A stretch of 64,000 nt of DNA from a candidate division WOR-3 bacterium (GCA_039804205.1 JBDRZY010000001.1:222198-286197), one strand, 5' to 3'. Positions 4,067 through 48,622 are shown, counted from the first letter of the stretch. The notes: generated from the letters alone by a model not told the origin. Numbers and translations are program-made.

Positions 4067-4293
4067 ATCTGTTCAAAAAAGGTAAGAAAAAAGATAGTAA
4101 ACTTATAAAAATCAATCTTTCTCCAGCTGAAATGTTTTATACGAATGCACTTTCAATAGAAGCTTTAGTCAACGTCCTTGAAAGTAAAAACATTTTGAAG
4201 AAACAGGAAGTTCTCGATGAAATTAGAAGGTTGGGGAAAGAGAGAAAAGAAAAAATGGAGGAATTGAATGAAGATATCGGAAAGAATAATTAA
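4063..4293 (+). CDS. small hypothetical protein
   Basis: 76 aa. ATG overlaps the upstream stop (ATGA) and a GAGG SD is present. Charged and coiled-coil-like. No recognisable family. Confidence 0.4.
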   Translation: MNLFKKGKKKDSKLIKINLSPAEMFYTNALSIEALVNVLESKNILKKQEVLDEIRRLGKERKEKMEELNEDIGKNN

Positions 4294-5464: not shown

Positions 5465-6480
5465 TGGACAGGTTAATCTTTGAAAATAAGATAGGTTCAT
5501 ACATCATTTTGCTGTTTCTCATTTTGATCTCAACATCGATAACATTGTTTTTAATAATTTTTTTCAAAGAGAAAAAATATAAATTTTTCAAAAGATTCTT
5601 CTGGTTCACAATTTTCCTCTTGTATTCGATCTCGTTTCATATCTCTGTATCTTTCTTTACTAAGTACACTCAGGTTTTCAACATATTGGTCGATATAACA
5701 AAAATATTATATGTTTTAACTTTCACATTTCTTTTCATATCTTTTATAAATTTTTTTATCGAGAGAATTTACAGGGATGATATTCTCAGACAACACATTC
5801 ATCTTTCACTACAGATAGAATCTCTTCTGAAAAAAACTGTATTCATATTTTCATTGATAGTGGCGTCAACTTTTATTTTAAGTATTCTTGGAGTTAACGT
5901 TCTGTCTATAATCACAGGACTTGGAATAGGAAGTGCTGCGATAGCACTTGCAGCTCAGGATCTTCTATCAAACGTTATAGGTGGAATGACGATATTTTTT
6001 TCAAAGGTTTTAAATGTTGGAGACCTTGTCGAAATAAATGATGAGTTGGGTTATATCATAAATATTGGTTTAAGAACAACAAAGTTGAAAAGGTATGATA
6101 ACAAGATCGTAATTTTTCCTAACAGCCTTGTTGCTAAAAGTAAAATAATAAACCATATGGAGAACGATGTTGTAAAAATTTCCTATGTTTTGCAACTCGA
6201 GTACAGAACATCTGTTGAAACTATCAAAAAAGCCTCTGATATCGTTACAAAAATACTTAACGATGATAACAGGATTGAAGATAAGAACTCAATAAATGTT
6301 GGTTTTTATAAATTTGATCAGTATTCTGTAAATCTTTATGTTAATTTTGCAGTAAACAAATCCCAGAATATAGCGCAGATAAAAGAAGATTTTCACTATC
6401 TTGTAAAATACAATTTCGATAGGGAGAAGATAAATTTTGCTTTCCCAACACAAAGTATAGAACTGAAACATAAGGAGTGA
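5461..6480 (+). CDS. small-conductance mechanosensitive channel (MscS family)
   Basis: TM helices followed by the MscS core [23 protein letters not shown]...VGDLVEI...[14 protein letters not shown]...[10 protein letters not shown]. Confidence 0.8.
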
Positions 6481-7727
6481 TTATGGAAAAAGAAAATTTA
6501 AAAAGAATCGATCTTGAAATTTTCGAAGCAATAGAGAATGAGAAAAGAAGACAGACGGAAAAGATAGAACTTATCGCATCTGAAAATTTTGTTTCCGATG
6601 CTGTTCTTGAAGCATTGGGAAGTGTTATGACAAACAAGTATGCTGAAGGTTATCCTGGGAAAAGATATTATGGTGGATGTGAATTCGTTGATGTAGCAGA
6701 AAATTTGGCAAGGGAAAGAGCAAAACAACTTTTTAAAGCAGACCATGCAAACGTTCAACCACACTGTGGTTCACAGGCCAATATGGTCGCATACCTTGCC
6801 TTTTTGAAACCGAACGATACGTTTATGGGGTTGGATCTTTCACATGGTGGACACCTAACACATGGACATCCAATAAGTTTTTCAGGGATTCTATACAATG
6901 CGGTTCACTATGGTGTTGAGAGGAACACCGAAGTTATAGATTATGCGAAATTAAGAGAACTTGCAAAAGAGGTGAAACCAAAGATGATAATAACAGGTGC
7001 GAGTGCTTATCCAAGGTTTTTTGATTTTCCCAAATTTAGAGAAATAGCCGATGAAGTTGGGGCAAAACTTGTTGTTGATATAGCACACATCGCTGGACTT
7101 GTTGCGGCTGGTCTCCATCCATCTCCGGTACCGTACGCAGATATTGTTACTTCGACAACTCATAAGACTTTAAGGGGACCAAGGGGAGGATTGGTTTTAT
7201 GTAAAGAGGAACATGCAGCTTTGGTCGATAAAACTCTGTTTCCTGGAATACAGGGTGGACCATTGATGCATGTTATTGCTGCAAAAGCGGTAGCTTTCAA
7301 AGAAGCGTTATCACCATCTTTTGTAAAGTATCAGGAACAGGTTTTGAAGAACGCAAAACAACTCGCAGAATCTTTGAAGGAAAAAGGATACAGGCTTGTG
7401 TCAGGAGGAACGGATACACATCTTATGCTTGTCGACTTGAGAAGTAAAAATTTGACAGGAAAAGTTGCAGAAAAAGCACTCGATAAAGCGGGGATTACTG
7501 TAAATAAAAATACGATTCCATTTGATCCGGAAAAGCCTTTTGTTACAAGTGGAATCAGGTTGGGGACTCCAGCGATGACGACCAGAGGGATGAAAGAGGA
7601 TGAGATGAAAAAGATAGCATCCTACATAGATAGGGTTTTAACAAATATAGAAAATGAAGAAGAGATAAATAAAATCAGAGAGGAAGTGAAAGAGTTCACT
7701 TCACACTTTAAACTTTTTGCATGGTAA
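6477..7727 (+). CDS. glyA: serine hydroxymethyltransferase
   Basis: Full-length [26 protein letters not shown], and the PLP-Lys region [14 protein letters not shown]. Confidence 0.95.
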
Positions 7728-7739
7728 GGAGGAAAATCT

Positions 7740-8984
7740 ATGGCAGTGATAAAACCTTTTAAAGGTATAAGACCTGTTAAGGAAAAAGTAGCAGAAGTAG
7801 CGGCACCGCCGTATGATGTTGTGTCAGTTAAGGAAGCAAGAGAGTATGTTAAAGATAAAAAATATTCTTTCCTGAAGATTGAAAAATCTGAAATCGAATG
7901 TCCTGATGATTGGGATGTTCATGATGAAAGGATATTCTTAAAAGGAAAAGAGAATTTTGAAAAGTTTCTTAAAGATAAGGTTTTATTTCAGGATAAGGAT
8001 GATTATCTTTACATCTATAAACAGATAATGGGAAAACATGAGCAAACCGGAATCGTAGCTTGTGCATCTGTTGATGATTATATATCCGATGTGATCAAAA
8101 AACATGAACATACAAGAGAGGATAAAGAAATCGAAAGAGCGATGCATGTTGATATCATAGATGCAAACACCGGCCCTGTTTTTCTTACATATAGGAAAGA
8201 AAAGGAGATAGATGATATAGTTAAAAATTTTATAGAAAAAAATGATCCTGAGTACGATTTTAAAGATGAGTTGAACGTGAGGCATATACTTTTTGTTATA
8301 AAGGATAAAAAGATAATTGAAAAATTGGTTAAACTTTTTGCTAATATAGAAAACCTGTATGTTGCAGATGGACATCATAGATCTGCAGCTGCTGTAAGGG
8401 TTGCCAAGAAGAGAAGAGAGAATCTTAAAAAGTACACGGGTAAAGAGGAATTCAATTTTTTCCTTTCGGTAATTTACCCTGATGATCAATTGAAAATAAT
8501 GGATTACAACAGAGTGGTGAAGGATTTAAACGGTCTTACAAAGGAAAAATTTTTTGAACAGTTGAAAAAGAAGTTCAATATTGTCGAATTGAAAAGACCT
8601 CAAAAACCTGAAAAGATACACTCCTTCACGATGTATATAGATAAAAAATGGTATAAACTTGAGGCAAAGGAGGATATAATATTTAGAAGTGATCCGATAA
8701 AATCTCTTGATGTTTCAATTTTACAGGATAATGTTTTGAACCCACTTCTTGGTATAAAAGAACCAAGAACAGATAAAAGGATAAACTTTGTAGGTGGTAT
8801 AAGAGGTATAGAAGAACTTCAAAGGTTGGTCGACTCAAAAGAATATGAAGTTGCTTTTGCTCTTTACCCTACAAGTATGGAACAGTTGATGAGTGTTGCT
8901 GATTCTGGAAACGTAATGCCTCCCAAGTCCACATGGTTTGAACCTAAACTCAGAAGTGGACTGATAGTTCATAAACTATCATGA
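7740..8984 (+). CDS. DUF1015 family protein
   Basis: Contains the ADGHHR motif and has the ~410 aa length typical of DUF1015. Confidence 0.7.
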   Translation: MAVIKPFKGIRPVKEKVAEVAAPPYDVVSVKEAREYVKDKKYSFLKIEKSEIECPDDWDVHDERIFLKGKENFEKFLKDKVLFQDKDDYLYIYKQIMGKHEQTGIVACASVDDYISDVIKKHEHTREDKEIERAMHVDIIDANTGPVFLTYRKEKEIDDIVKNFIEKNDPEYDFKDELNVRHILFVIKDKKIIEKLVKLFANIENLYVADGHHRSAAAVRVAKKRRENLKKYTGKEEFNFFLSVIYPDDQLKIMDYNRVVKDLNGLTKEKFFEQLKKKFNIVELKRPQKPEKIHSFTMYIDKKWYKLEAKEDIIFRSDPIKSLDVSILQDNVLNPLLGIKEPRTDKRINFVGGIRGIEELQRLVDSKEYEVAFALYPTSMEQLMSVADSGNVMPPKSTWFEPKLRSGLIVHKLS

Positions 8985-9770
8985 ATTCTTGAAGATTTTA
9001 AAAATTATGAATGTGGAGATTGAAACAAGAACGATCGAAGGACCAGAAGGAAAATCGAGTTTGTATGAAAGGAATAATCCTGTAAGTGAAAAGAATACAT
9101 TCAAAAGAAAATTGAAGAGAATTATTTTATAGATGTTTGTAAAAATGGTTTTTGTTATCAAAGGGGCTATAGTCAAAAAGATTATATTGACTATAACCCC
9201 TGAAATTTTTATCATAACAACAGTCCCTAAAGTTACAAAAAGATAGAAAATGGTGTCAAAAATATTGTAATTGATACCGACAATTTTTGAATATTCCTGA
9301 TCGAGTGAGATGAAAATAAACTCCTTCATAAAAATGAAAAAAATTATAATTGTAAAAATTAGAACAAAGGAAAGTAAAATAATATCAAATGTGTTTATTG
9401 ATAGAACATTTCCAAAAAGATACCCGAGCATATAACCCGTATATCCTTTTTTAAAATTTAAAAGTATTATCCCTATGGACATTCCCAAACTCCATATTAT
9501 TGAAACTGTTGAGTCGTTTTCAATTTTAAATTTTTTTCCGATGTAAAACATGATGGATGTGAAGATTAATGTGAAAGGGATAGCAACGAGAATTGGGTTC
9601 AAGGAAAGAAAAACTCCAAGTCCAAGACCGCCAAAGGCAGCATGTGAGATTCCTCCTGAAATGTATGTGGTTTTTCTTAAAACAACGAAGGTTCCAATTA
9701 TTGATGCAAGAAGAGAGTAAAGGATAAGAGAGAATACACTCAATTGAATAAATTTATACTCGAAAATCAT
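8979..9770 (-). CDS. metal (Zn/Mn) ABC transporter permease, ABC-3 family
   Basis: Polytopic membrane protein of ZnuB/MntB type (GGISHAAFGGLGLGV). Confidence 0.8.
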   Translation of the reverse strand: MIFEYKFIQLSVFSLILYSLLASIIGTFVVLRKTTYISGGISHAAFGGLGLGVFLSLNPILVAIPFTLIFTSIMFYIGKKFKIENDSTVSIIWSLGMSIGIILLNFKKGYTGYMLGYLFGNVLSINTFDIILLSFVLIFTIIIFFIFMKEFIFISLDQEYSKIVGINYNIFDTIFYLFVTLGTVVMIKISGVIVNIIFLTIAPLITKTIFTNIYKIILFNFLLNVFFSLTGLFLSYKLDFPSGPSIVLVSISTFIIFKIFKNS

Positions 9771-10492
9771 AATTTTTTATGATCACTATGATCTATAATG
9801 TTTACATCGTATCCGTAAAGATTGTTCATTACAAAATCTCTGTTTTTGTTTATATCACCATCAAAATTTATTTTTTTGTTTAAACATATTATTCTATTTA
9901 TTCTAGTTGAGATCGCACCAAGATCATGTGTTACTAGTATAATTGACATTTTTTCTTTCAGTTCAAATAGAAGGTTATAAAACTCATTCTGTGATTTTAT
10001 ATCTATAAATGAAGTCGGTTCATCGAGTATGAGCAGTTCTGGATCGTTCACAATAGCCCTTGCAAGAAGAACTTTTTGTAACTCTCCTCCGGAAAGGTTC
10101 GATAATCTTTTCTTTAAAAGTTTTTCTATACCCACTTTCCCGATCGTTTCAATGGTTTTTTGGTGATCATATTTGGTAAAATTTCTAAAAACTCCATTGT
10201 ATCTTGCAAGAAGTATGAAATCGTAAACTGATATTGGAAAATCAAAAAGGTCTGTTTTCCTTTGAGGGAGATAACCAATGGAAATATTTTTTTTATAAAA
10301 TTCAATCGTTCCAGATGTCGGTCTATTTATACCGAGTATGAGTTTCAGGAGTGTTGTTTTCCCTCCACCGTTTGGACCTATTATTGATACGAGTTCGTTC
10401 TCCTCAATTTTAAAATTGATATTCTCTAGAATAACTATTCCATTTAAAATGTATCCTAAGTTTTTTATTTTTAAAATATGATCAGAACTCAT
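9767..10492 (-). CDS. metal ABC transporter ATP-binding protein
   Basis: Walker A GPNGGGKTT, signature LSGGELQKV, Walker B LILDEPTSFID. Confidence 0.85.
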   Translation of the reverse strand: MSSDHILKIKNLGYILNGIVILENINFKIEENELVSIIGPNGGGKTTLLKLILGINRPTSGTIEFYKKNISIGYLPQRKTDLFDFPISVYDFILLARYNGVFRNFTKYDHQKTIETIGKVGIEKLLKKRLSNLSGGELQKVLLARAIVNDPELLILDEPTSFIDIKSQNEFYNLLFELKEKMSIILVTHDLGAISTRINRIICLNKKINFDGDINKNRDFVMNNLYGYDVNIIDHSDHKKL

Positions 10493-11310
10493 AACGATTT
10501 TAAAAACATTAAGATCTTTTCAAAATTTTTTATTGGATCTTCGATTGGATCTATGTATAAAATTTTTGCTTTCAGTTCTTTTTCGAAATTTTTAGCATAG
10601 TTCTCTGAGGATCTGTTCGTATAGAAAAAGATTTTAATTTTTTCTTTTGACATTTTTTCAAAAATATTTTTCAGATCTCTTACAGAAATTTCATCCTCAT
10701 TATCGGAGATGGTTTTTATTTCTAAGTTAAACTCCTGTCCAAAGTAGTAAAAAGCGTTATGGTCTGTATAAATGGTGCTCAATTGTTTTTCCTTTATGAT
10801 TTTTTCGATAGATTCTTTTAACGAATCTATTTTGCTATTCAAGATATGAAAGTTTCTGTTCAGATTTTCTTTTTCAACAATGTTGTAAAAGAAAAGCGTA
10901 TCATAAAGAACTTTTGAAAAGATTTTTAGATTATCAAGAGAAATCCAGATGTGTGGATCGTTAACTTTTGTAAGCGATCTGGATAAGTTTATCGTTATCG
11001 AATTTTTTGCCTCTTTCAAAAATTGATTTTTATTTTTTTCTTCAAACTCAATTTTTGAACCAAGTAGAACAAAAATTTTCGATTCTGAAATTCTTTTGAA
11101 GCTGGAAGGAGAAATTTCTGAAATATGTGGATCCATATTCCTTTCGAGAACACTTACACTAACGATTGTGGAATCGAGAAGGTTTTGAAGAAAAGCACTG
11201 ATTGGAAACAGAGTTGAAACGACAACCGTTTTTTTGCTTTTTACATCGCTACACGAGAAAAGGATAAGAACTGTAAAGAATAGAATGAAAAAGATTTTGT
11301 TATTTTTCAT
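10489..11310 (-). CDS. periplasmic metal-binding lipoprotein (ZnuA/TroA-like cluster-9 SBP)
   Basis: Lipobox LFSCS. Candidate metal-ligand motifs DPHISEISPS and DPHIWIS. It is the first gene of a three-gene ABC operon. Confidence 0.65.
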   Translation of the reverse strand: MKNNKIFFILFFTVLILFSCSDVKSKKTVVVSTLFPISAFLQNLLDSTIVSVSVLERNMDPHISEISPSSFKRISESKIFVLLGSKIEFEEKNKNQFLKEAKNSITINLSRSLTKVNDPHIWISLDNLKIFSKVLYDTLFFYNIVEKENLNRNFHILNSKIDSLKESIEKIIKEKQLSTIYTDHNAFYYFGQEFNLEIKTISDNEDEISVRDLKNIFEKMSKEKIKIFFYTNRSSENYAKNFEKELKAKILYIDPIEDPIKNFEKILMFLKSL

Positions 11311-29221: not shown

Positions 29222-29248
29222 TTGACAAATTTTTTTAGCGTATATAAT
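29222..29248 (+). promoter_or_regulatory. candidate promoter for the riboswitch-btuB transcript (TTGACA ... TATAAT, short 15-nt spacer)
   Basis: gTTGACAaatttttttagcgtaTATAAT lies directly upstream of the riboswitch P1 helix. The spacer is shorter than the 17-nt optimum. Confidence 0.35.
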
Positions 29249-29254
29249 CCTAAT

Positions 29255-29440
29255 CTGTCAGGTGCTCTTTTGAGGTAAAAGGGAAAGTGGTGAAAATCCA
29301 CTGCTGTCAAGCAACTGTAAGCGGATACGAATGCCTTATACCACCCATTTCGGGGAAGGTGGCAGGAGGTTTAAGCCGCAAGCCAGGAAACCTGCCTGAT
29401 GTTCGGAACCTGCTATGACAGGGTCCGTCCTGACAAGGAT
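29255..29440 (+). promoter_or_regulatory. cobalamin (B12) riboswitch
   Basis: Carries the conserved core GGGAAAGUGGUGAAAAUCCACUGCUG ... GCAACUGUAAGCGG (B12-box-like). The P1 helix pairs 29256-29262 (TGTCAGG) with 29429-29435 (CCTGACA), directly abutting the AAGGATGG SD of the downstream TonB-dependent receptor. Confidence 0.75.
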
Positions 29441-29446
29441 GGATAA

Positions 29447-31333
29447 ATGAAAAAATGTATTATATTCATTTTTATCTTTTTCTCCCTGGTGAAAATATTT
29501 TCATCCCATATATATGTTTATGACAAAAATAGTGGTGAAAAAATATATTATGTCACAGTTTTTTCTGACGGTAAACTTTATCAAACAAAAACTCCGTTTG
29601 AAATAGAAAAAGGAAAAGAGATAACAGTTTCTTCTTTAGGATACAAATCTTTAACATTTAAAGTTCTTGAAGAAACTTTAAGGGTATATCTTGAAATCGA
29701 ACCTTTTACCTATAAACCGCTTATAGTTGAAAAAGAAAAGATAAAAGGTGAAGTTTTAAAATTGGAGACGGGAAACAAAAATCCGGTTTCGATTATAAAA
29801 AAAATTCCCTCTATAACTTTAAGAGAGTATAATAGAAACTATGTGATTTCTGTGGATGGACTTTTAAATGAAGATAATCAGATTTGTATTGATGGTGTTC
29901 CAATCGTTAACCAGCAGTCAAGAACAGTTCCAGTAAACCTTTTACCAAAAAATCTTTTTTCATCAATTGGTTTTTATAAGAATGGTATATCACATTTTTA
30001 TGGTGAAAACATTTTTTCCTCTGGAATAAATTTTGAAATAGAGAAACTTGACAGATCGAAAGTGAATATAAATATTGATGACAAAAAGTCTTATGATCTT
30101 GATCTAACATTATCGTTCAAAGGTTTTAAATTAGGAAACGAGACTTTTGATAGAAATGATATGGTTATACCAGGAAGAGAAAAAATTTTAAACTCATATC
30201 AAAAGGGATATTTGAATTATTTTTATTTTAATAATGGTTTTTTCTCAACTTTAATGATCGATGGTAGAGTCAAAACAGGTGATCCTGGAATTTTAGGGCA
30301 TAGATTTTTTAACTCAACGATTTATGAGAAGAGTAGAATTATAAATTTTAAATTTTTAACTGCAAAAAACCTGGAAATTCTCTATTCACATAATCTATAC
30401 ACCTATGTTTACGACAATAAAGATCTGGTAATCTATGACACTTCAAAAACATGTTCTGATAATATAATTCTGAATTATAACGATCTGCAAAACCGTTTTG
30501 GAATCTTTTTTCAAAAAAACTGGATAGTATCAACTAAAGTTTTATTTTTGAATGAATTTTTTTATGGGATCTTTTCAAATTTTGATGTAAAATCTTTTGA
30601 AATTTCAAATTCTTTTTCAATCTCATCCACATTGAAAAATGATAAGTTTAAGAACGATTTTGTGTACACTTTCTCAATTTTAAAAGTTTTCAATTTTGAT
30701 GAATATCTTGTAACACACTCCATCAAAATCTCAACCAGAAGACCAACTTTCAATGAACTTTACTGGACAGGAGATATTTTTACTAGTGGGAACGAAAAAC
30801 TTGTAAACGAAAAACTTTATTCATATTATCTTGCTTTTTCAAAAGAAAATAAGAAATTTTTTGGTGGATTCAATTTTTACAAAGACCTTATAAGATGGAT
30901 CAACATAAATGGTGTTTATACTCCCGAAAATATTTTAAAAACTTATAACCCTTACATAGGTCTTCAATACAACAAGAATATATTGAATTTTAACAACTCT
31001 CTTGTATTCACCATATCACCGATGTATCTAGATAGGTTCAGGATGCTTTTATACACATCTTTTGTAAACCTGAACTATTCTTTAAGTTACGAGTTTAAAA
31101 ATTTAATTTTTTATCTTTATTTTGAGTATCGATCGAAGAGATTTTTAAACAATGAAAACACGAAATACTTACCACCATATTTCTGTTTGGATGAAGTGAG
31201 TTTGGATTATAGATTGAAGAGTTTGTCTATTACACTTTCGATCGATAATCCGTTCGATTTGAAAATTGAAAGTGTGAGAGGTTATATAAAAGAAGGAAGA
31301 AAATTCTCTTTAAACCTAAAAATGGAGGTATGA
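29447..31333 (+). CDS. TonB-dependent outer-membrane receptor (SusC/BtuB-like; N-terminal CarboxypepD_reg-like domain + plug + short barrel)
   Basis: Signal peptide. CarboxypepD_reg-like segment (KEITVSSLGYKSLTFKV). Plug motif ISVDGLL...ICIDGVPIVN...NIFSSGINFEIEK. Tyr/Asn-rich beta-barrel. Under B12 riboswitch control. Confidence 0.7.
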   Translation: MKKCIIFIFIFFSLVKIFSSHIYVYDKNSGEKIYYVTVFSDGKLYQTKTPFEIEKGKEITVSSLGYKSLTFKVLEETLRVYLEIEPFTYKPLIVEKEKIKGEVLKLETGNKNPVSIIKKIPSITLREYNRNYVISVDGLLNEDNQICIDGVPIVNQQSRTVPVNLLPKNLFSSIGFYKNGISHFYGENIFSSGINFEIEKLDRSKVNINIDDKKSYDLDLTLSFKGFKLGNETFDRNDMVIPGREKILNSYQKGYLNYFYFNNGFFSTLMIDGRVKTGDPGILGHRFFNSTIYEKSRIINFKFLTAKNLEILYSHNLYTYVYDNKDLVIYDTSKTCSDNIILNYNDLQNRFGIFFQKNWIVSTKVLFLNEFFYGIFSNFDVKSFEISNSFSISSTLKNDKFKNDFVYTFSILKVFNFDEYLVTHSIKISTRRPTFNELYWTGDIFTSGNEKLVNEKLYSYYLAFSKENKKFFGGFNFYKDLIRWININGVYTPENILKTYNPYIGLQYNKNILNFNNSLVFTISPMYLDRFRMLLYTSFVNLNYSLSYEFKNLIFYLYFEYRSKRFLNNENTKYLPPYFCLDEVSLDYRLKSLSITLSIDNPFDLKIESVRGYIKEGRKFSLNLKMEV

Positions 31334-32286
31334 TGAAAAAATTTTTTGTTATTCTGTCCGTTTCATTGATTCTGCTGTTAAACATTTCCTGTACTCTTTT
31401 TAAAACTGAGAAGATGGAAAGTTCAATCTACATTCTTGATTGGGAAAAGGAAGCGGTTTACACTATAGATTCTCTATTCCAGATTGGAACAACTCCTCTT
31501 TTGATAACAGGTTCAGCACCTACAGATGTATATGTTGACGATGGAAATATTTACATTACAAATTCAGGTTTTGGAGGGATACCAACGATCGAAAAGTTTG
31601 ATCTCTCTGGAAATAAAATTGCGCAGATAGAGAGGGGAGAATTGAGTTCTCCTGCATATATTGAAGGTAATCAGGATTATATTTTTGTTACAGATTGGCT
31701 TTCGAATTCTATTTTAAAGATAGAAAAGAAAAATTTTTCAATAGTAGATTCATTGTCAGTTACAGCACCACAGGAGGTTGTTTACAGGGATGGATTTTTA
31801 TATGTAGGATCAAACAATACATCTTTAAATGGACATATATATAAAATATCTGAAGATTTTAAAAATCTTGAAACAGATCTTGCAAAAGGTTCAAATCCAT
31901 CCTATCTTGATCTTGATGAAAACAATCAAATCTATGTTTCTCTTGTTGGTAACTATAACGACATAAAGGGTAAAATAAAGAAGGTAAAAGATGGTGTTGA
32001 TGTTGATTCTTTAGGATTCGATAATTTTCTTGGAAAAGTTAAGGTTGTTGAAGATAAAATTTTTATAACAGATATCTACAATAAATTGTATATACTCGAT
32101 TCAGATTTGAATCTCATAAAAACTATTGAAATTCCATCACCTTCAGATATTGAATATTTTAAAGGAAAAGTGGTTGTTTCAACAAATGTTGGAAAATTAT
32201 ATCTTATAGATTTTTCAGAACTTACATTGGTTGATTCTTTGAGTTATGAAATACCCCTAAAGGTTGCTGAAATGTTTGTAAAATAA
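31330..32286 (+). CDS. surface lipoprotein with YVTN-type beta-propeller repeats (candidate B12-capture accessory, BtuG-like by context)
   Basis: Lipobox LLNISC. Repeated ~40-aa blades (DVYVDDGNIYITNSG, QDYIFVTDWLSNSI, DGFLYVGSNN, NQIYVSLVGN, DKIFITDIYN, KGKVVVSTNVGKLYLID). Translationally coupled (ATGA) to the TBDT. Confidence 0.55.
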   Translation: MMKKFFVILSVSLILLLNISCTLFKTEKMESSIYILDWEKEAVYTIDSLFQIGTTPLLITGSAPTDVYVDDGNIYITNSGFGGIPTIEKFDLSGNKIAQIERGELSSPAYIEGNQDYIFVTDWLSNSILKIEKKNFSIVDSLSVTAPQEVVYRDGFLYVGSNNTSLNGHIYKISEDFKNLETDLAKGSNPSYLDLDENNQIYVSLVGNYNDIKGKIKKVKDGVDVDSLGFDNFLGKVKVVEDKIFITDIYNKLYILDSDLNLIKTIEIPSPSDIEYFKGKVVVSTNVGKLYLIDFSELTLVDSLSYEIPLKVAEMFVK

Positions 32287-32337: not shown

Positions 32338-32391
32338 GACCCCACTATATTTTGTGGGGTCTATTGACATTTTTGAAGTGAGTGATAATAT
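32338..32391 (+). promoter_or_regulatory. 8-bp perfect inverted repeat (GACCCCAC-N8-GTGGGGTC) abutting a TTGACA-16nt-TAATAT promoter upstream of nrdD
   Basis: IR at 32338-32361. -35 at 32364-32369 and -10 at 32386-32391. GGAGG SD at 32406-32410. Confidence 0.4.
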
Positions 32392-32403
32392 TTTTTGAAA
32401 AAA

Positions 32404-34527
32404 ATGGAGGAATGGGTGACCAAGGTTGAATACATAAGAAAAAGAGATGGTAGGCTGGAAAAGTTTGACGAGAACAAGATAACCGAAGCGATTTTTAAGG
32501 CGGTAAAAGCTGTTGGTGGAACAGATATTGAGCCAGCAAAAAAGATAACGAATCAGATAGTTGCTGTTCTTGAAGTTCTGTATAAAGATGGAAGGATCCC
32601 AACAGTAGAAAACGTGCAGGATCTTGTTGAAAAGATGCTTATCGAAGCAGGACATGCAAAAACAGCAAAAGCGTATATACTTTACAGAGAGCAACATAAC
32701 CAGATAAGAAAGAGTAAAGAGTTGATAAAAGATAGTATCGATTTGATGGATGAGTATATTGAAAAGATCGACTGGAGAGTTAACGAGAATTCAAATATGT
32801 CATATTCTTTACAGGGGCTTAACAACCATATCTCTTCAACAATTTCAGCTTTATACTGGCTTGAAAAAATTTATCCCAAAGAGGTTGCAAATGCACACAG
32901 AGAGGGAGATCTCCATATACATGACCTTGGCATGCTTTCCGTTTACTGTTGTGGATGGGATCTTGAACTACTACTGCTTAAAGGGTTAGGAGGTGTTTCA
33001 GGGAAAATAGAATCAAAACCAGCAAAACATTTCAGAACCGCCCTTGGACAGATAGTTAACTTTTTCTATACATTACAGGGAGAGGCAGCTGGAGCACAGG
33101 CATTTTCGAATTTTGATACCTATCTTGCTCCATTCATAAGGTATGATGAACTCACATATGAAGAGGTTAAACAGGCGATGCAGGAGTTTGTTTTCAATGT
33201 TAACGTTCCGACGAGAGTTGGATTTCAGACTCCTTTCACAAATGTAACCATGGATCTTGTGTGTCCAGACACTCTAAAAGATGAGAGAGTGATCATCGGT
33301 GGAAAAAGGATGAATGAAACTTACAAGGAATTTCAACAAGAGATGGACATGTTTAACAAAGCGTTTGCTGAAGTTATGATGGAAGGAGACGCAAAGGGGA
33401 GAATTTTTACATTCCCAATTCCAACATACAACATCACAAAAAATTTTGATTGGGACAATCCCAATCTCGAAAAAATATGGGAAATGACAGCAAAATATGG
33501 TATACCATATTTCAGTAATTTTATAAATTCTGATATGGATCCTTCAGATGCAAGGAGTATGTGTTGTAGATTGAGATTGGATAACAGAGAGTTGAAAAGA
33601 AGGAGTGAAAAGATCCAGTTGAATCTACTTTCGAACAGAGATTCTATCCAGGAACATAAACAGGAAAAACATCCAAAAAGAAGTGGTGGACTTTTTGGTG
33701 CAAATCCGATGACTGGTTCTGTTGGGGTCGTAACGATAAACATCCCAAGGATAGCTTACAATAGCAAAAGTAAATCTGACTTTTTCTCAAAACTTGAAAA
33801 GATGATGGAAATAGCAAAAGAATCTCTTGAAATAAAAAGAAAAGTTCTTGAAAAGTTCACAGAGGATAATCTTTATCCATATTCTAAAGTTTACCTTGAG
33901 GAAGTAAAAAAAGCGAATGGTAAATACTGGGCGAACCATTTTTCTACTATAGGACTTGTTGGAATGAACGAGGCGTGTTTAATGCTTGTAGGAGAAAATA
34001 TTGGTCAAAGTAAAGGAAAGGAGTTTGCATTAGAAACTTTAAAATTTATGAGGGAAAAACTTGAAAATTTCACAGATGAAACTGGAAACCTGTATAACCT
34101 TGAAGCATCCCCAGCTGAGGGAACATCATACAGACTTGCAAAAGAGGACAGAAAACGTTTCCCAGATATCATAACAGCAGGAAAAGATGTTCCATATTAT
34201 ACGAACTCCACACAACTTCCAGTTGGTTTTACAGACGATCTTTTTGAAGCGTTAAAATTGCAGGATGAACTTCAATGTCAGTATACTGGAGGGACAGTTT
34301 TGCATGGTTTTATAGGTGAAAGAATATATTCTTCAAACGCTTGTAAAAAACTTGTGAAAAAAATAGCAGAGAATTTCCATCTGCCATATTTTACGATTAC
34401 CCCTACATTTTCAATATGTCCTGTTCATGGATATATCCCGGGAGAACATAACTATTGTCCTTATGATCATACAACTGAAGAACTTGAAAAATTCGGTGTT
34501 GAAATATATGTTGAAAAAGGAGAGTAA
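32404..34527 (+). CDS. nrdD: anaerobic ribonucleoside-triphosphate reductase (class III RNR) large polypeptide: ATP-cone + catalytic barrel + C-terminal metal-binding segment, ending at an in-frame TAA before the glycyl-radical segment
   Basis: N-terminal ATP-cone (VTKVEYIRKRDGRLEKFDENKI). Conserved NrdD core (GGVSGKIESKPAKHF, MCCRLRLD, NLEASPAEGTSYRLA). C-terminal CPVHG...CPYDH site. True start is likely GTG 32416 or ATG 32404, after a GGAGG SD. The track start is TTG 32395. Confidence 0.85.
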   Translation: MEEWVTKVEYIRKRDGRLEKFDENKITEAIFKAVKAVGGTDIEPAKKITNQIVAVLEVLYKDGRIPTVENVQDLVEKMLIEAGHAKTAKAYILYREQHNQIRKSKELIKDSIDLMDEYIEKIDWRVNENSNMSYSLQGLNNHISSTISALYWLEKIYPKEVANAHREGDLHIHDLGMLSVYCCGWDLELLLLKGLGGVSGKIESKPAKHFRTALGQIVNFFYTLQGEAAGAQAFSNFDTYLAPFIRYDELTYEEVKQAMQEFVFNVNVPTRVGFQTPFTNVTMDLVCPDTLKDERVIIGGKRMNETYKEFQQEMDMFNKAFAEVMMEGDAKGRIFTFPIPTYNITKNFDWDNPNLEKIWEMTAKYGIPYFSNFINSDMDPSDARSMCCRLRLDNRELKRRSEKIQLNLLSNRDSIQEHKQEKHPKRSGGLFGANPMTGSVGVVTINIPRIAYNSKSKSDFFSKLEKMMEIAKESLEIKRKVLEKFTEDNLYPYSKVYLEEVKKANGKYWANHFSTIGLVGMNEACLMLVGENIGQSKGKEFALETLKFMREKLENFTDETGNLYNLEASPAEGTSYRLAKEDRKRFPDIITAGKDVPYYTNSTQLPVGFTDDLFEALKLQDELQCQYTGGTVLHGFIGERIYSSNACKKLVKKIAENFHLPYFTITPTFSICPVHGYIPGEHNYCPYDHTTEELEKFGVEIYVEKGE

Positions 34528-34695
34528 ATGGAAGAGGTAAAAGTTGTGTTAAAAGGTGAAGAAAAAGATGTTAAAAAAGTGAAAGTGATTCCAACAGAGA
34601 TTTACAGCAGAATAGTTGGTTATTTTAGACCTGTTAACAACTGGAACGAAGGCAAAAGGGAAGAGTTTAAGGAAAGAAGAGAGTTCAAACTTTAA
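34528..34695 (+). CDS. 55-codon mini-ORF encoding the NrdD glycyl-radical segment (RIVGYFRPVNNWNEGKREEF), in the same frame as nrdD directly after its TAA stop
   Basis: ATG follows the TAA immediately (TAAATG). Translation MEEVKVVLKGEEKDVKKVKVIPTEIYSRIVGYFRPVNNWNEGKREEFKERREFKL contains the canonical NrdD C-terminal glycyl radical motif. Confidence 0.6.
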   Translation: MEEVKVVLKGEEKDVKKVKVIPTEIYSRIVGYFRPVNNWNEGKREEFKERREFKL

Positions 34696-34708
34696 TAATT
34701 CCTTTTAA

Positions 34709-35410
34709 ATGGTCACTGTAAAAGGTTTTCAAGGGATAACAACACTCGATTTCCCTGAGAAAGTTTCATCCACAATTTTTCTGGCTGGATGTAACTTCAG
34801 GTGTCCATTCTGTCATAATCCTGAACTTGTAAAAGATTTTGATATCATACAAACGATAGATGAAAATAAACTGTTTTCCCTTCTTGGTGAAAGAAAAAAT
34901 TTTATTGAAGGTGTCTGCATTACAGGTGGTGAACCCTTAATGAGTGAAGATGTTGTTGATTTCATAAAAAAGTTGAAAGAAAGATTTGAACTTCCGATAA
35001 AGGTTGATACAAATGGGTACACCCCGAAAATTCTTGAGAAAATTTTAACAGCAAACCTTGTTGATTATGTTGCTATGGATATAAAAACATCTCCTTCAAA
35101 ATATATAATTGCTTCTGGAATAAACCTTGACTTTGATAGGATAAAAAATTCTGTTGAAATCTTATTGAATTCAAAAATCGATTATGAATTCAGAACTACA
35201 ATGGTTCCTCAACTCGTTACACTCGAAGATATAAGGGAGATCGGAGTTTTGATAACAGGTGCAAAAAAATATGTGATCCAACAGTATAGAAACATTAAAA
35301 CTTTAAACGAAGAATTTAAAACGGTTAAACCTTATAAACCAGAAGAGTTAAAAAAAGCAAGGGATATAATGACACAGTTTGTTAACGATGTTTCAATAGT
35401 TGGAATTTAA
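34709..35410 (+). CDS. nrdG: anaerobic ribonucleotide reductase activating protein (radical SAM)
   Basis: CNFRCPFCHN radical-SAM cluster motif near the N-terminus. 233 aa, immediately downstream of nrdD. Confidence 0.85.
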   Translation: MVTVKGFQGITTLDFPEKVSSTIFLAGCNFRCPFCHNPELVKDFDIIQTIDENKLFSLLGERKNFIEGVCITGGEPLMSEDVVDFIKKLKERFELPIKVDTNGYTPKILEKILTANLVDYVAMDIKTSPSKYIIASGINLDFDRIKNSVEILLNSKIDYEFRTTMVPQLVTLEDIREIGVLITGAKKYVIQQYRNIKTLNEEFKTVKPYKPEELKKARDIMTQFVNDVSIVGI

Positions 35411-36484: not shown

Positions 36485-39400
36485 CTATTTTTTTATCATT
36501 AATATCTTTTTATTTTCGCTAAAATAGATATCAAAATTTTTTACATCATGTTTAAAAACTTTTCTCCCTGTTCTGTCAAAATAGATTTTTTTATCTTCAT
36601 TTTTGAATTTTTCTTTTGTTTTTACTTCTTTAGTTTGATTGTATGGATTGTATTTTAAAAATAGAGGATATTCAGAAAATCCTGTTGATAAAACTATTTT
36701 TGAGAAAAATGGCGGAGAATCTCTTTTGATAAAAATTTTTGCTATTTTTTTAGAGTAGGAATCTATAACACTTCCATTTTCAAATTTAATGGAATCTATA
36801 AAACTACTTAAAGAAATATAAAAGATTAACTGAGGGTTATCAACATTTGAATATATTTCAAAACTTTTATTTATTGAAATATCGATCGTTTCTTTGAAAG
36901 ATATCCCTTCATGAAAATCGAAAAGAAAAAGAGTGTAATAGTAGTATAGAATGTTTTGATCATGATATTTTAGATTTTTTAAAAGTGGAGATTGAGCGAT
37001 TCTGTTGTCTTTAAAAGAACCTAAAATTTTATTTTCAAAAGAAAGAACTGGATGATCGGTTATATAATAATCCATATAGTTTGTAGTGGTATCGTAAATA
37101 AGATCGATGCCTAAAGGTAAAATTGACAGGTTACTTCCTTTGTAAAGGTAATTTCCATCATACGACTCTTTTATGTTGAAAAATTCTTTAATCCTCTTAC
37201 CCTCTTTATCATATCCAAAAACATCGCCTCCTTCAACGATCATGGGAATATTTTTTGAGATCAGTTTTTCTATAAATTTTGATTCATCTGATGTTATATG
37301 GTATATTTTAGGATATACCCCATAGGAGAAAAAGTATGCTGAATAAAAAATAGATGAATCGATTCTGTTTGAAATGTTTAAAAAAATCTTCATCGAATCT
37401 TTCAAAAATGTTAAAAAGTTTGAATTTTGATAGGTGTTTACAGGATCAAAGAAGAATAGGGAAAATTTTTTGGTTGTTAAAATTATAAAATCAACAGTAT
37501 CTTTTATAAAACCGTTGGAGTATTCAATCTTTATATTGTTTGTATCATTAAAAAATGTGAAATGGTTCCATAGAATAACCTTTTCAAAAGGAGTTTTTAA
37601 CCAGAAAGTATCTTTTAAAACCTTATAACCGTTATGTAAGAATTTTATTTGAATACTTTCTGAAGGAAAATCGTTTAATTTTGATATCAGAATTCCAATT
37701 TGGTATTCTTGATTTTCATAAAAAATTATGGTCTCGTTTGATATTATGGAATCAACTATGATCCTGAATCTGTTTACAGGAAAGGTTAAGTAAAAAGTCA
37801 GCGAATCAACCTTTATATTTAAATCTAAACTTTTTGATCCTTTTATAGTCCTGACCGTTGTTGTATAATATTCTCCATCAAAAACTACACTATCCAATAT
37901 TTCACAACAGGTTGAGTTGATGTTTATATCGTGTTCATCGTTTTTGTTTAGTTTAAAAAAAATCTGTACGGGTTCTCCCTCCTCTATCCTATGATTGTTA
38001 TTTGATAGATTATCTGAAAAATAGAATGTATCTATAAAAATAGAATCCCCATCAAGATAGAATGAATCAAGAAACAGGATACCATTTTTATATGATGAAA
38101 TATAATAAAAAGATTTGGGTTTTAGATTAAAAAACCTGTAAAAGATTTTTGAGGGTTCAGAAAAATTAAAAGTATCAAGAATTTTTTCTTTTGAGAATAT
38201 ATTTATTTTGCATGGTTCTATAATATTTATCTCTAATAAGGAATCTGAAATATCAACTGAATTTGGTAAAGAGTAAGGTTTTATCGTAAAAGATTTTTTC
38301 ATACACAAAACCGGAACCCCAAAAACATTGTAAGAAAGTATCTGGGAAATGGAGTAATCGTTTATACCAGCATAATTCAAAAACGAAAAGACCAATTTTG
38401 TGTACAGATCAGAAAAGATCGATTCACTTTGAGTTTTTTCCAGTTTAAAACAGTTATCGTTAAAAAAATCGAAAAATTTATTCATCATGTAGTTGTTGAA
38501 CTGATAAAAAGTTTCAGATGAGGATGAAAAGGTTAAGATTGCATTGCACCTTGAACCAAAAAGTGATTCAGTAAAAGATCTTTCATAATTCGAATTTGCT
38601 TTATCAAAGTTACCAATAAGACATGAGAAGAAAAGAAAAAATCCGCTCTTTGGAAATTCCAGAGAGTTTATTTCATTTAAGGAAAAATCTGGAAGAACCG
38701 TTGAAATCGTGTTTCCATGTCCTCTGTATATAAAGATGAAATTGTTTATCTCCTGATGCAGAATGTTCAATTCAAAGATCCAGTTGTATTGAGGAAACAT
38801 CAAAGAGTCAGGTAATTTTTCATATGTGTAAGTGTATTTGGGAAAAAGGGAATTTGTTTCCCCATATATTTTCCCTTTTAATATTTTATTGATTAAATAG
38901 GGATATGTAAAATAGAGATAATCTTCGGTTGAGTCCTGATTATAATCATAGAAAGGGGAAGAAAAGATAAAATCAACAGTTGAATTATCAAAAAGAAAAT
39001 TCTTCAATTTTTCAACATAAATGTTCAATTGCTCCTGATTGGAAACAGGTATCCTTGAAATTGGTACAAAAATAGTATCGGTTAATGGATATGAAAGTAA
39101 AAGGTCTGACGAAAAATATTTTAAAGTGTAAGGGTTTAAACAGTACCTGTAAGGATTGATTCTGTTTTCATCACCGATAAGAATTATACAGCAGAGTTTT
39201 TCTGTGTTTTTAATTGAATCGATAAGTTGTTTTACAGAATTAAAAGATGTATCTTGATTTACAATATTTATGTATTGGTATCCCAAAGAGAGTAAAATAA
39301 AATTTAATCTTTCAGGAGATATATCTTTCTGATGAACTACAAGAACATTTTTTTCATAGTCGAAAATTAACTTTTTTGAAAAAGGAACGAATGGAACTTC

Positions 39401-39490
39401 AAAATCGTTTTGATTTTGTTCAATTCTCAACTCATAAGATAATAATGGAACAAAAAAGAGTAAAATGATAAAGTTTACAACCTTTTTCAT
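36485..39490 (-). CDS. large secreted peptidase C25 (gingipain-family)-like protein with a possible T9SS-type C-terminal domain
   Basis: Signal peptide. C25-like N-terminal region (CIILIGDENRINPYRY...DTIFVPISRIPV). Candidate catalytic His (IYRGHGNT) and Cys (FFSCLIGNFD). 1001 aa. C-terminal beta-rich tail (KKIYFDRTGRKVF...IYFSENKKILMIKK). Confidence 0.55.
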   Translation of the reverse strand: MKKVVNFIILLFFVPLLSYELRIEQNQNDFEVPFVPFSKKLIFDYEKNVLVVHQKDISPERLNFILLSLGYQYINIVNQDTSFNSVKQLIDSIKNTEKLCCIILIGDENRINPYRYCLNPYTLKYFSSDLLLSYPLTDTIFVPISRIPVSNQEQLNIYVEKLKNFLFDNSTVDFIFSSPFYDYNQDSTEDYLYFTYPYLINKILKGKIYGETNSLFPKYTYTYEKLPDSLMFPQYNWIFELNILHQEINNFIFIYRGHGNTISTVLPDFSLNEINSLEFPKSGFFLFFSCLIGNFDKANSNYERSFTESLFGSRCNAILTFSSSSETFYQFNNYMMNKFFDFFNDNCFKLEKTQSESIFSDLYTKLVFSFLNYAGINDYSISQILSYNVFGVPVLCMKKSFTIKPYSLPNSVDISDSLLEINIIEPCKINIFSKEKILDTFNFSEPSKIFYRFFNLKPKSFYYISSYKNGILFLDSFYLDGDSIFIDTFYFSDNLSNNNHRIEEGEPVQIFFKLNKNDEHDININSTCCEILDSVVFDGEYYTTTVRTIKGSKSLDLNIKVDSLTFYLTFPVNRFRIIVDSIISNETIIFYENQEYQIGILISKLNDFPSESIQIKFLHNGYKVLKDTFWLKTPFEKVILWNHFTFFNDTNNIKIEYSNGFIKDTVDFIILTTKKFSLFFFDPVNTYQNSNFLTFLKDSMKIFLNISNRIDSSIFYSAYFFSYGVYPKIYHITSDESKFIEKLISKNIPMIVEGGDVFGYDKEGKRIKEFFNIKESYDGNYLYKGSNLSILPLGIDLIYDTTTNYMDYYITDHPVLSFENKILGSFKDNRIAQSPLLKNLKYHDQNILYYYYTLFLFDFHEGISFKETIDISINKSFEIYSNVDNPQLIFYISLSSFIDSIKFENGSVIDSYSKKIAKIFIKRDSPPFFSKIVLSTGFSEYPLFLKYNPYNQTKEVKTKEKFKNEDKKIYFDRTGRKVFKHDVKNFDIYFSENKKILMIKK

Positions 39491-47038: not shown

Positions 47039-48622
47039 ATGAAGAGGGGATTATCAGTATTAATACTTATTATCTTTGTCTCACTTTATCCATTTGCGAA
47101 CTCTAATGGACTTTTAGATATTCCAACAGCAGAGATTCAAAAAAATGGTGAATTCTCTTTTGGAATAGATTTCTCTTTATCATCTGCTTTAACCAACGAT
47201 GATGTTCCTTTCACCTACAATCTATTTTTCTCTTATGGTCTTCTTGATATGTTTGACGTGACTTTGAATATGCTCACATATAAAGATTATACGATTGACT
47301 TTCAATACAACTTTTTAAAACCTAAAGGAAATCTTCCATCACTTTCAGCAGGTATAAGAAATATAACCTATAGAAAATACATCGATGAAGGGGGAGGAGG
47401 AGATACAAGTGCGATCGGTCTTTCAGATCATAACTATAGTTTAAGATCACAGGATTGGTTCTCTCTATACATTGTTGCAACAAAAGATTTTAAAAATTTT
47501 GGTAAATATACCCTGGGTCTTGGTAGAGGGGAATTCGTCGGTTATGGAAGAGGAAAATATCTTTCAACATCGATCCTATTTGATGAACAGGCACTTGAGA
47601 ATGGTGCAAACGAGTTTATGTTCAGTTTCTTTGGTGGTGCAGAGATTCCAATCGTGTATGGGTTGAGTTTTCTTGGAGATGTAACTGGAAGGGATGTTAA
47701 TCTCGGTTTGAAATATAATCTAAAAGATTTGAATGTTGTTTTTGGGTTAACCCATGCTGAACTTTTCACATCAGGTGATCCCACACTTAAACCAAGAATT
47801 GAAATAGGAGCAAATTATACGATCAATTTTGGTGGACCGAAAAAAGAGAGTATGGGAACTTTAATAGTAAATGTTGTTGATGCTTCGAATGATAAACTTT
47901 TGGATGCAACTTTGACTTTTGAGGAAACTAACCTCCAGCCAATAAGTTTGACAGGTGGATATAAAAAATTACAGATAAAACCAGGGAAATATACCTTAAA
48001 AATTGAATCCAATGGGTACAAATGGCAAAAAAGAATATTCACAGTTTCCTCTGGAGTTACTACAGAACTCAATGTGAAATTGAATAAAAAGGATGATACA
48101 GAAAAGATAAACCATGATAAAGCGATACAACTTGCAAAAGATGCAAAAACCCTCTTGAACAAAGGAGATATTGTTGGTGCTCTGTCAAAACTGAACGAAG
48201 CGATAAAACTTGCACCTGACGATCCCACTGTTCTTGCTTACATGCAGGAAGCAAACACAAAAAAACAACAGATGATCAAAACATACAGAGAGAATGCACT
48301 TTCCTATGAAGGAAAAGGCTGGATCAAATCAGCGATTTCCGAGTGGAACAATCTGTTACTTCTTGATCCAAAAAACAGTGAGGCACTCCAGCATATAGAT
48401 GAACTGAAAAAACAACAACAGAAAGAAGAGCAGAAAACTGCTGAAAAACCAAAAGAAACAAAACCAACAGTTGATCCAAACAAACTTTACGAGGAAGGTT
48501 ATGCAGCATACCTTGCAGGTGACTACAAGACCGCTGTTGCAAAATTTGAAGCTGTTTTGAAAATAGATCCAAAACATGAAAAAGCACAGAAGTATTTAGA
48601 TAAAGCAAAGAAGAGATTGTAA
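47039..48622 (+). CDS. secreted/outer-membrane protein with a CarboxypepD_reg-like beta-sandwich and C-terminal TPR helices
   Basis: Signal peptide. Beta-rich N-terminal 270 aa. TLIVNVVDASNDKLLDATLTF...KPGKYTLKIESNGY (CarbopepD_reg-like). C-terminal TPR-like pairs (YEEGYAAYLAGDYKTAVAKFEAVLKIDP). Confidence 0.5.
   Translation: MKRGLSVLILIIFVSLYPFANSNGLLDIPTAEIQKNGEFSFGIDFSLSSALTNDDVPFTYNLFFSYGLLDMFDVTLNMLTYKDYTIDFQYNFLKPKGNLPSLSAGIRNITYRKYIDEGGGGDTSAIGLSDHNYSLRSQDWFSLYIVATKDFKNFGKYTLGLGRGEFVGYGRGKYLSTSILFDEQALENGANEFMFSFFGGAEIPIVYGLSFLGDVTGRDVNLGLKYNLKDLNVVFGLTHAELFTSGDPTLKPRIEIGANYTINFGGPKKESMGTLIVNVVDASNDKLLDATLTFEETNLQPISLTGGYKKLQIKPGKYTLKIESNGYKWQKRIFTVSSGVTTELNVKLNKKDDTEKINHDKAIQLAKDAKTLLNKGDIVGALSKLNEAIKLAPDDPTVLAYMQEANTKKQQMIKTYRENALSYEGKGWIKSAISEWNNLLLLDPKNSEALQHIDELKKQQQKEEQKTAEKPKETKPTVDPNKLYEEGYAAYLAGDYKTAVAKFEAVLKIDPKHEKAQKYLDKAKKRL

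Follow-up and report, generated by a model that had tools for sequence, protein, structure and literature searches.

The closest described counterparts of the locus reported here are the BtuB-BtuG systems of Bacteroides (B. thetaiotaomicron BtuB1G1, BtuB2G2 and BtuB3G3; PDB 8BLW, 8BMX, 8P97/8P98), in which a TonB-dependent transporter (TBDT) for vitamin B12 (cobalamin) works with the lipoprotein lid BtuG, as described by a pedal-bin model (PMC10404256). Homologues of BtuG were found in Bacteroidetes and nowhere else (PMC6143338), BtuG and lidded TBDTs have been interpreted as an adaptation to gut competition (PMC6143338, PMC10404256, bioRxiv 10.1101/2023.03.17.533168), and a 2026 review keeps BtuG within gut Bacteroidota (PMC13616437). 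Here we describe positions 29222–32286 of a 64,000-nucleotide (nt) stretch of DNA, referred to as a whole as the window, from a candidate division WOR-3 bacterium (GCA_039804205.1 JBDRZY010000001.1:222198-286197; phylum now listed by NCBI as Caldifarciminota), where a promoter and a cobalamin riboswitch precede the genes for a TBDT and a propeller lipoprotein. We think it fairly likely that these form a B12-repressed two-gene outer-membrane unit for corrinoid uptake in which the propeller is a putative corrinoid-binding lid on the TBDT, and the pair is probably a BtuBG-like B12 uptake system based on a distinct propeller family outside Bacteroidota. A literature search returned no paper that joins WOR-3 with cobalamin.

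In common with the Bacteroides loci, the unit has a cobalamin riboswitch upstream and a BtuB-size TBDT gene with the gene of a ~300–350-aa lipoprotein immediately behind it, and this lipoprotein resembles BtuG in its seven-bladed propeller, N-terminal lipobox cysteine, strongly acidic surface and full-length colinear profile alignment. It differs in its host, which is WOR-3 (with relatives in TA06 and Hydrothermota) and not a member of the Bacteroidota; in an invariant NSGFGGxP loop that is peculiar to the window family; in a mature protein of ~297 aa, compared with ~335 aa, that lacks the long blade-5 loops; in having no Bacteroidota-type export signal; and in an operon of two genes only, without btuFCD, btuH or btuJ. 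Other known systems share parts of the arrangement. The leader resembles that of E. coli btuB, a translational OFF riboswitch that sequesters the Shine-Dalgarno sequence (SD) of the TBDT gene, and E. coli BtuB is the closest TBDT in fold and has a similar barrel length, but it works without a lipoprotein partner and without an extra N-terminal domain, and its sequence similarity to the window TBDT is marginal. The lipoprotein shares the GxxP...YV.N blade repeat and seven blades with 1L0Q and the E. coli YncE family, after which NCBI names its relatives ('YncE family protein'), whereas neither 1L0Q nor YncE is a lipoprotein paired with a riboswitch-controlled TBDT. With SusC/SusD the locus has in common the concept of a surface lipoprotein lid encoded together with its TBDT, and possibly an N-terminal CarboxypepD_reg-like domain, but the window TBDT has 628 aa rather than the ~1000 aa of SusC and its partner is a propeller rather than the all-helical SusD. 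The operon logic and the fold are thus known, and the riboswitch and the TBDT are ordinary in themselves; what is new is the different propeller family, the different phyla and the stripped-down two-gene form.

Linkage of riboswitch, transporter and propeller genes

The strongest functional evidence came from comparative genomics. RF00174 was located immediately 5′ of the TBDT/propeller pair in 8/8 loci found via protein homologues, scoring 61.6–105 bits in seven of them and giving a weak, partial match in the eighth (L008). The propeller gene adjoined the TBDT gene on all eight contigs, with the order TBDT-then-propeller in six, in unrelated neighbourhoods, and with the order reversed in L005. 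A genome scan restricted to one genome per species yielded 17 loci; all 14 that retained upstream sequence carried RF00174 ~2 kb 5′ of the propeller gene, the intervening genes being TBDTs, and in the remaining three the contig ended before the riboswitch position. Overall, the riboswitch-TBDT-propeller linkage was invariable over ~20 loci from WOR-3, TA06, Hydrothermota and unclassified metagenome-assembled genomes (MAGs), with propeller identity down to ~25 % and unrelated flanking genes, and overlapping or nearly abutting TBDT/propeller gene pairs were seen in 20 related loci. Related propellers with sorting tails of the type IX secretion system (T9SS) served as a specificity control. These carried the riboswitch at only 2/7 loci with adequate upstream sequence, and the linkage is therefore specific to the window propeller family and not a general YVTN trait; in the metagenome scan for T9SS-tailed relatives, 9/80 loci were usable, most matches being to the sorting tail only.

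Several contigs displayed variant architectures. In L028 (4177–5736), a cobalamin riboswitch of 92.8 bits (4177–4353) lies directly 5′ of a gene for a 435-aa YVTN propeller (4429–5736) with no TBDT between them; this propeller begins with a signal peptide and ends, at its C-terminus, in a sorting tail of the T9SS type, and the contig ends just past the gene. This may be a B12-regulated surface propeller that is T9SS-anchored rather than lipid-anchored. In L035 (1998–5436), a riboswitch of 92.2 bits is followed by genes for a 636-aa TBDT and a 446-aa lipoprotein with a PKD-like spacer before the propeller, which is another architectural variant of the B12-linked propeller partner; the next open reading frames (ORFs) resemble queD and queC, judged by sequence only. 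L007 (3592–9713), a JGI metagenome contig, contains a complete operon of RF00174, a TBDT (708 aa), a PF16819 (DUF5074) propeller, btuF, btuD and btuC, joining the Pfam family of BtuG to a canonical ABC importer. In L008 (3580–8905), a Spirochaetia MAG, a riboswitch of 33.6 bits precedes genes for a 683-aa TBDT, a 374-aa propeller and tonB, with exbB and exbD on the opposite strand, and the propeller partner may thus extend to Spirochaetota. Another WOR-3 MAG (L003, identical to L025) carries a SAM riboswitch of 79.8 bits (7451–7558) 5′ of an HcyBio-family cluster, 2 kb 3′ of its B12 pair.

Riboswitch leader, gene junction and boundaries of the unit

The sigma-70-like promoter (29222–29248, + strand), read from the sequence, consists of a −35 box TTGACA (29222–29227), a 15-nt spacer and a −10 box TATAAT (29243–29248). 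The same arrangement, TTGAC[A/T] and a TATAAT-like box separated by 15–16 nt, occurs at the same position in eight otherwise divergent related leaders; the promoter pattern scan missed this promoter because it demands a spacer of 16–18 nt. The initial annotation of this stretch, made from the sequence alone, had begun the locus at 29222, which is the first base of the −35 box, and the elements that it named were found where it had placed them. Among these was a cobalamin riboswitch, for which cmscan returned an RF00174 match at 29243–29413 (+ strand) of 95 bits against a gathering score of 31.5 (E 2.2e-22), spanning model positions 1–189 of 189. The first ~10 nt of this envelope overlap the −10 box, and the RNA therefore probably starts near 29255. 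Homologous aptamers at the same place in relatives scored 59–117 bits.

The P1 helix had been thought to abut the SD of the transporter gene, which did not hold. P1 extends with its 3′ strand to about 29400, and the SD (AGGA) occupies 29436–29439, within a 30-nt expression platform that follows the aptamer and contains a separate 9-bp hairpin (29423–29444, + strand; GUCCGUCCU, GACA loop, AGGAUGGAU). The SD is located inside the 3′ arm of this hairpin, and the start codon begins two nt past its end. The hairpin has a folding energy of −19 kcal/mol in RNAfold (z = −3.8, with 0/200 shuffles as stable) and has no U-tract 3′ of it, so it is an SD sequestor and not a terminator, and control is translational. 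In an alignment of eight related leaders, the SD helix was paired in 96.9 % of cells and showed two compensatory pairs, C-G to U-A in L016 and U-A to C-G in L015, while sliding the helix register lowered the pairing to 27–58 %. These pairing data agree, in a small sample, with a predicted OFF switch that acts on translation, like that of E. coli btuB. The leader additionally contains three mutually complementary segments, UGUCAGG (29256–62), UGACAGG (29416–22) and CCUGACA (29429–35). The minimum free energy (MFE) fold of the whole leader was not significantly more stable than shuffles (z = −1.9), and the evidence for the platform was confined to the covariance model and the local hairpin, the whole-leader MFE fold being left unused. 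An L5-L13 kissing loop between the GACA loop of the SD hairpin and an aptamer UGUC was considered and rejected, as it is not conserved and the loops of L001, L015 and L016 are unrelated.

The TBDT gene (29447–31333, + strand) and the lipoprotein gene (31330–32286, + strand) meet at the junction GGAGGTATGATGAAA. The coupling region (31324–31335, + strand; GGAGGTATGATG) contains an SD (GGAGG) just 5′ of the lipoprotein start codons, followed by the TBDT stop codon TGA (31331–31333), which overlaps one candidate ATG at 31330 and abuts another at 31333. The former gives a protein of 318 aa and the latter, the start used by NCBI, one of 317 aa; the stop/start overlap at ATG 31330 bears out the translational coupling of a 318-aa lipoprotein to the TBDT that had been proposed.

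As annotated initially, nrdD and then nrdG follow downstream. Between the lipoprotein gene and nrdD, the terminator/promoter scan and the sequence revealed a GC-rich hairpin with no strand assigned (GACCCCAC...GTGGGGTC, 32338–32361), which has a poor T-tract on the + strand and probably marks the 3′ boundary of the two-gene unit by terminating transcription there. Directly 3′ of this hairpin, nrdD has its own near-consensus extended −10 promoter (TTGACA at 32364, 16 nt, TGnTAATAT at 32391). Because the hairpin and this promoter precede nrdD-nrdG, the riboswitch unit most probably comprises two genes only. Among 40 further ORFs of the 64-kb window scanned against Pfam, there was no btuFCD, cob or cbi gene and no obvious B12-dependent enzyme, in agreement with the earlier statement that no cobalamin genes follow. 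An ABC transporter at 8979–11310 (− strand) was examined as a BtuFCD candidate and rejected, since it is of the ZnuABC type (ZnuA, ABC_tran and ABC-3 domains); its permease also gives a weak FecCD match. The inner-membrane step is not encoded nearby.

Structure and relationships of the transporter and the lipoprotein

The TBDT of 628 aa consists of a signal peptide (~aa 1–19), a putative small β N-domain (aa ~24–80), a plug (aa 101–188) and a barrel of ~22 strands (aa ~204–628). It scored 23.7 bits against the Pfam Plug model, for which the cutoff is 23.9, and 8/9 members of its family match Plug. In the loci that diverge further, the partner TBDTs score above the Pfam thresholds for both Plug and barrel and have 530–580 aa, which indicates that the extra ~90 N-terminal residues of the window TBDT are an addition of its sub-branch. 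The CarboxypepD_reg-like domain assigned to this region in the initial annotation was recovered as a statistically weak match to CarbopepD_reg_2 (PF13715), with an E of 0.071 and 13.6 bits against a cutoff of 32.2, and is not confirmed. Three of nine family members match this model at E ≤ 0.1, the model of the TBDT contains short β-strands of low confidence at aa 36–80, and a 'GYk' motif is colinear with the well-supported N-domains of the L005 and L007 TBDTs at an hhalign probability of 4 %.

In sequence, the transporter is highly divergent. The NCBIfam model of the B12 receptor (TIGR01779) gave 14 bits against a cutoff of 600, a direct sequence search of the PDB gave no match, and a nine-sequence profile gave as its sole, weak PDB match E. 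coli BtuB (E ~0.01) over the C-terminal 35–45 residues (profile positions 581–623). In the AlphaFold2 (AF2) model, which has a mean confidence (pLDDT) of 60.6 with barrel blocks at 70–86 and a poor plug, ~22 barrel strands are formed. Foldseek ranks 1–16 obtained with this model are all BtuB, at TM-scores (TM) of 0.42–0.53, with E. coli BtuB at ranks 1–10, 12 and 13 and B. thetaiotaomicron BtuB1, BtuB2 and BtuB3 at ranks 11 and 14–16; other small TBDTs come next, and all 50 listed matches are TBDTs. These results support a predicted BtuB-like transporter. The initial annotation had called it a SusC-type receptor, a candidate that we rejected: the protein has 628 aa, there was no match to the SusC/RagA family (TIGR04056) at E ≤ 1 in the NCBIfam scan, no SusC appeared among the top 50 Foldseek matches, and the partner is a propeller. 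In size, SusCs exceed BtuB-type TBDTs by ~50 % (PMC10404256).

One public copy of the TBDT (P0009) is recorded as 614 aa, from a start that would remove the signal peptide, and we prefer the 628-aa ATG, which is preceded by an SD. The called start of the L001 TBDT (4091) lies inside the riboswitch platform, 5′ of the conserved SD hairpin. The annotation of start codons is therefore inconsistent in this TBDT family.

The lipoprotein carries a signal peptide and a lipobox whose cysteine, Cys21 (31390–31392), is invariant in 16 homologues and aligns with Cys32 of BtuG2. Its sequence matches a protein from a candidate division WOR-3 MAG at 100 % identity. Its AF2 model, computed from eight sequences (pLDDT 85, predicted TM 0.83), shows seven four-stranded blades with the N- and C-terminal strands joining in the last blade, and the YVTN-type β-propeller that had been predicted is thereby confirmed at the level of predicted structure. 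Foldseek against the PDB ranked the archaeal S-layer YVTN propeller 1L0Q first (TM 0.74), and BtuG1, BtuG2 and BtuG3 occupied ranks 2, 4, 5, 6, 8, 10, 12, 13 and 15 onward at TM 0.72–0.75 (BtuG-type structures 8PTF, 8BMY, 8PTD, 8BMZ, 8OKV, 3DSM and 8BAI). Most other propellers, including Tako8, Fbw7, BamB and YncE (0.64), gave TM of 0.5–0.67, those of the kind of YncE, Tako8 and BamB mostly lying at 0.64–0.67. The modelled fold points to the YVTN/BtuG group but cannot tell BtuG apart from YVTN propellers of a generic kind. A direct PDB search with the lipoprotein sequence found only designer propellers via one repeated blade and was uninformative; the matches in Pfam and NCBIfam were weak, to SGL/lactonase-like and ScyE-like propellers, and no catalytic-family signature was significant in either database.

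The mature lipoprotein has a net charge of −17, with a family mean of −21, and is as acidic as BtuG. Family-invariant residues (G61, P64, N78-S79-G80, G83, P108, N189-P190, G207 and G214) are all located in D-A or B-C loops and, by strand topology, share one 'top' face, which in BtuG2 is where B12 binds. An exhaustive profile search delimited a core propeller family of eight representatives at E < 1e-30 (315–324 aa), surrounded by a halo of related propellers. For comparison with BtuG, we used authentic BtuGs listed by Wexler et al. (PMC6143338, Table S2), which match Pfam PF16819/DUF5074 at 57–76 bits. An hhalign comparison of a 16-sequence family alignment with 10 authentic BtuGs gave a probability of 99.8 % and an E of 1.6e-27 over 291 colinear columns beginning at the lipobox Cys, and in the PDB the family profile matched BtuG1 over one colinear stretch (E 1e-13); the top match, 1L0Q (E 2e-20), came from three repeat-level stretches and not from one colinear alignment. 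The BtuG2 residues in contact with B12, taken from bioRxiv 10.1101/2024.02.16.580637 and PMC10404256, map to columns of above-average conservation in the family (permutation P = 0.003), with Asn107 aligning with the invariant NSGFGG loop and with similar residues at S131/S107, W149/W123, Q219/N189 and Y239/Y209 (BtuG2/window lipoprotein). As proof of a B12 pocket, this contact-site conservation was downgraded, since S/N-P at blade starts is a generic YVTN signature. On the basis of these sequence comparisons, the lipoprotein is best classified as a remote homologue within the propeller superfamily of BtuG with the same architecture, and not as a strict member of the BtuG family.

Proposed function, alternatives and genomic surroundings

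A model that accommodates these features would operate as follows. Transcription from the sigma-70-like promoter would produce a leader that folds into the cobalamin riboswitch; when cobalamin is bound, the 9-bp hairpin would form and hold the SD so that translation of the TBDT is blocked, and the overlapping stop and start codons would block translation of the lipoprotein along with it. When B12 is scarce, both the compact BtuB-like TBDT and the lipid-anchored seven-bladed YVTN-type propeller would be made. The propeller would then most likely bind corrinoids on its conserved acidic 'top' face and hand them to the TBDT, forming a complex with it as an extracellular lid in the manner of Bacteroides BtuG on BtuB, with TonB-driven import by the barrel. 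A further proposal is that in WOR-3, TA06, Hydrothermota and uncultured lineages related to them, a minimal BtuB is lidded by a separate NSGFGGxP family of propeller lipoproteins that capture corrinoids; it is tentative, and we rate its chances slightly below even.

Several observations weigh against a BtuG-like lid. Lidded TBDTs have been reported as essentially Bacteroidota-specific (PMC10404256; bioRxiv 10.1101/2023.03.17.533168), and the residues that follow the lipobox cysteine (C-T-L-F-K) are unlike the acidic export signal of Bacteroidota lipoproteins. The window lipoprotein gave no PF16819 match at E ≤ 1 in Pfam, nor did its relatives P0018, P0019, P0169 and P0171 at E ≤ 0.01. By hhalign, the family is nearer to other lipoprotein propellers of ~340 aa with YVTN repeats (3e-63) and to T9SS-tailed propellers (1e-52) than to Bacteroides BtuG (1.6e-27), with non-gut DUF5074 proteins at 1e-35, and the generic archaeal S-layer YVTN propeller 1L0Q equals BtuG by fold and sequence. 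Only 7/24 invariant or near-invariant BtuG residues are kept and 17/24 are changed. Within the residue test set (N54-E55-G56, Q93, N107, S131, R133, W149, W194/S195, Q219 and Y239), the B12-contacting NEG motif (N54-E55-G56; Glu55/Gly56) and Arg133 are lost, the family having W in place of E55, E in place of G56 and A or W in place of R133, and similar residues are confined to S131, W149, Q219 and Y239. Part of the conserved-contact signal is generic YVTN repeat, and the contact mapping is supportive only. Finally, the TBDT model is moderate (pLDDT 60.6, TM 0.42–0.53). The BtuG likeness asserted in the initial annotation accordingly survives as a structural and architectural analogy (TM 0.72–0.75 and the hhalign match given above) and fails at the level of PF16819 membership and invariant residues. 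Its caveat that the assignment rested on genomic context and fold was well placed, and the context proved to be much stronger evidence than its author could know; its Bacteroidota framing does not fit a WOR-3 host and is still useful as a source of analogy.

The pair could be a B12 uptake unit whose propeller faces the periplasm from the inner leaflet of the outer membrane and acts as a BtuF-like shuttle or retention factor rather than a lid, which we consider unlikely but not negligible. No gene for a periplasmic binding protein or ABC transporter is found beside the pair in any WOR-3-type locus, and the E. coli propeller YncE, of the same superfamily, also matches (TM 0.64). YncE is located in the periplasm, and its gene adjoins the TBDT gene yncD. 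Among the colinear matches by structure and by profile, however, the best are to the surface lid BtuG and not to YncE, and close relatives with T9SS sorting tails are surface-attached, one of them (L028) directly behind a cobalamin riboswitch. The post-Cys sequence without a Bacteroidota-type export signal, together with the view that surface export of lipoproteins is rare outside Bacteroidota (bioRxiv 10.1101/2023.03.17.533168), would favour the periplasm, but BtuG2 is itself surface-exposed without a canonical export signal (same source). It is less probable still that the propeller is a B12-regulated accessory that binds no corrinoid, acting for example as a partner of the TBDT in structure or assembly or as an enzyme or binder for another substrate, with its BtuG likeness due to the shared YVTN scaffold. 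The loss of most BtuG-specific invariant residues, the equal score of the S-layer propeller, the closer affinity to propellers that mostly lack riboswitch linkage and the weak SGL/lactonase-like and ScyE-like matches are what such an accessory would predict. Against it, the linkage to riboswitch and TBDT holds without exception in ~20 loci, at identities as low as ~25 % and also where the gene order is reversed, the family-invariant residues are all on the face that binds B12 in BtuG2, and the search for catalytic families gave no significant signature.

A different boundary for the unit would alter its main role. If the riboswitch unit ran through nrdD-nrdG, its chief task might be to shut off the B12-independent class III ribonucleotide reductase (RNR) when B12 is present, with the TBDT and propeller as passengers. 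B12 riboswitches are reportedly known upstream of B12-independent RNR genes in other bacteria, an observation said to go back to Vitreschak and Rodionov in 2003, and the hairpin at 32338–32361 has no good + strand T-tract. A gene of ~706–714 aa follows the pair in the window (region 32395–35410) and in L001, in both of which it is nrdD, as well as in L009–L012, L015 and L016, the propellers of the last two being 31–32 % identical. However, nrdD has the near-consensus extended −10 promoter directly upstream, the riboswitch controls the first gene through SD sequestration, at translation and not at transcription, and unrelated genes follow the pair in at least 12 other loci; read-through into nrdDG as the main function is very improbable.

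With the lid on a B12-repressed TBDT as the preferred reading, the data suggest that lidded B12 capture, so far reported only in Bacteroides-type bacteria, extends in a divergent version to other phyla. The stated exclusivity is challenged by a BtuB-propeller pair that is locked to a riboswitch in uncultured lineages of WOR-3, TA06 and Hydrothermota and whose propeller family escapes existing BtuG models. If this reading is true, the scavenging of corrinoids with the help of a lid would have a wider phylogenetic and ecological range than supposed; the prediction of B12 auxotrophy and uptake in candidate phyla would gain a signature consisting of an NSGFGGxP lipoprotein, a short TBDT and RF00174; and structural work on what a B12 lid needs would have at hand a minimal system of two genes, in which the propeller is shorter and both BtuH/J/K and an adjacent BtuFCD are absent. 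If the NSGFGGxP family is such a lid, neither lipoprotein-capped TonB transporters nor the surface lipoprotein export that they require would be exclusive to Bacteroidota, which raises the question of how a lipoprotein of this kind would reach the cell surface in diderms outside Bacteroidota. In that case, B12 capture would be an old and recurrent function of the wider YVTN propeller superfamily, including its T9SS-anchored (L028) and PKD-spaced (L035) versions.

Elsewhere in the window, queA and tgt of the queuosine pathway are located at the 3′ end (61757–63843), with no queG seen in the window. The final step of queuosine synthesis can use the B12-dependent QueG, and this pathway is a possible B12 consumer in the WOR-3 host. 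WOR-3 is often placed near the FCB lineages. Two further genes of the window, close to the locus, are reminiscent of FCB-group cell-surface biology, one at 36485–39490 (− strand) encoding a 1001-aa Peptidase_C25 (gingipain-family) protein and the other at 47039–48622 (+ strand) encoding a TPR protein with an internal CarbopepD_reg-like segment.

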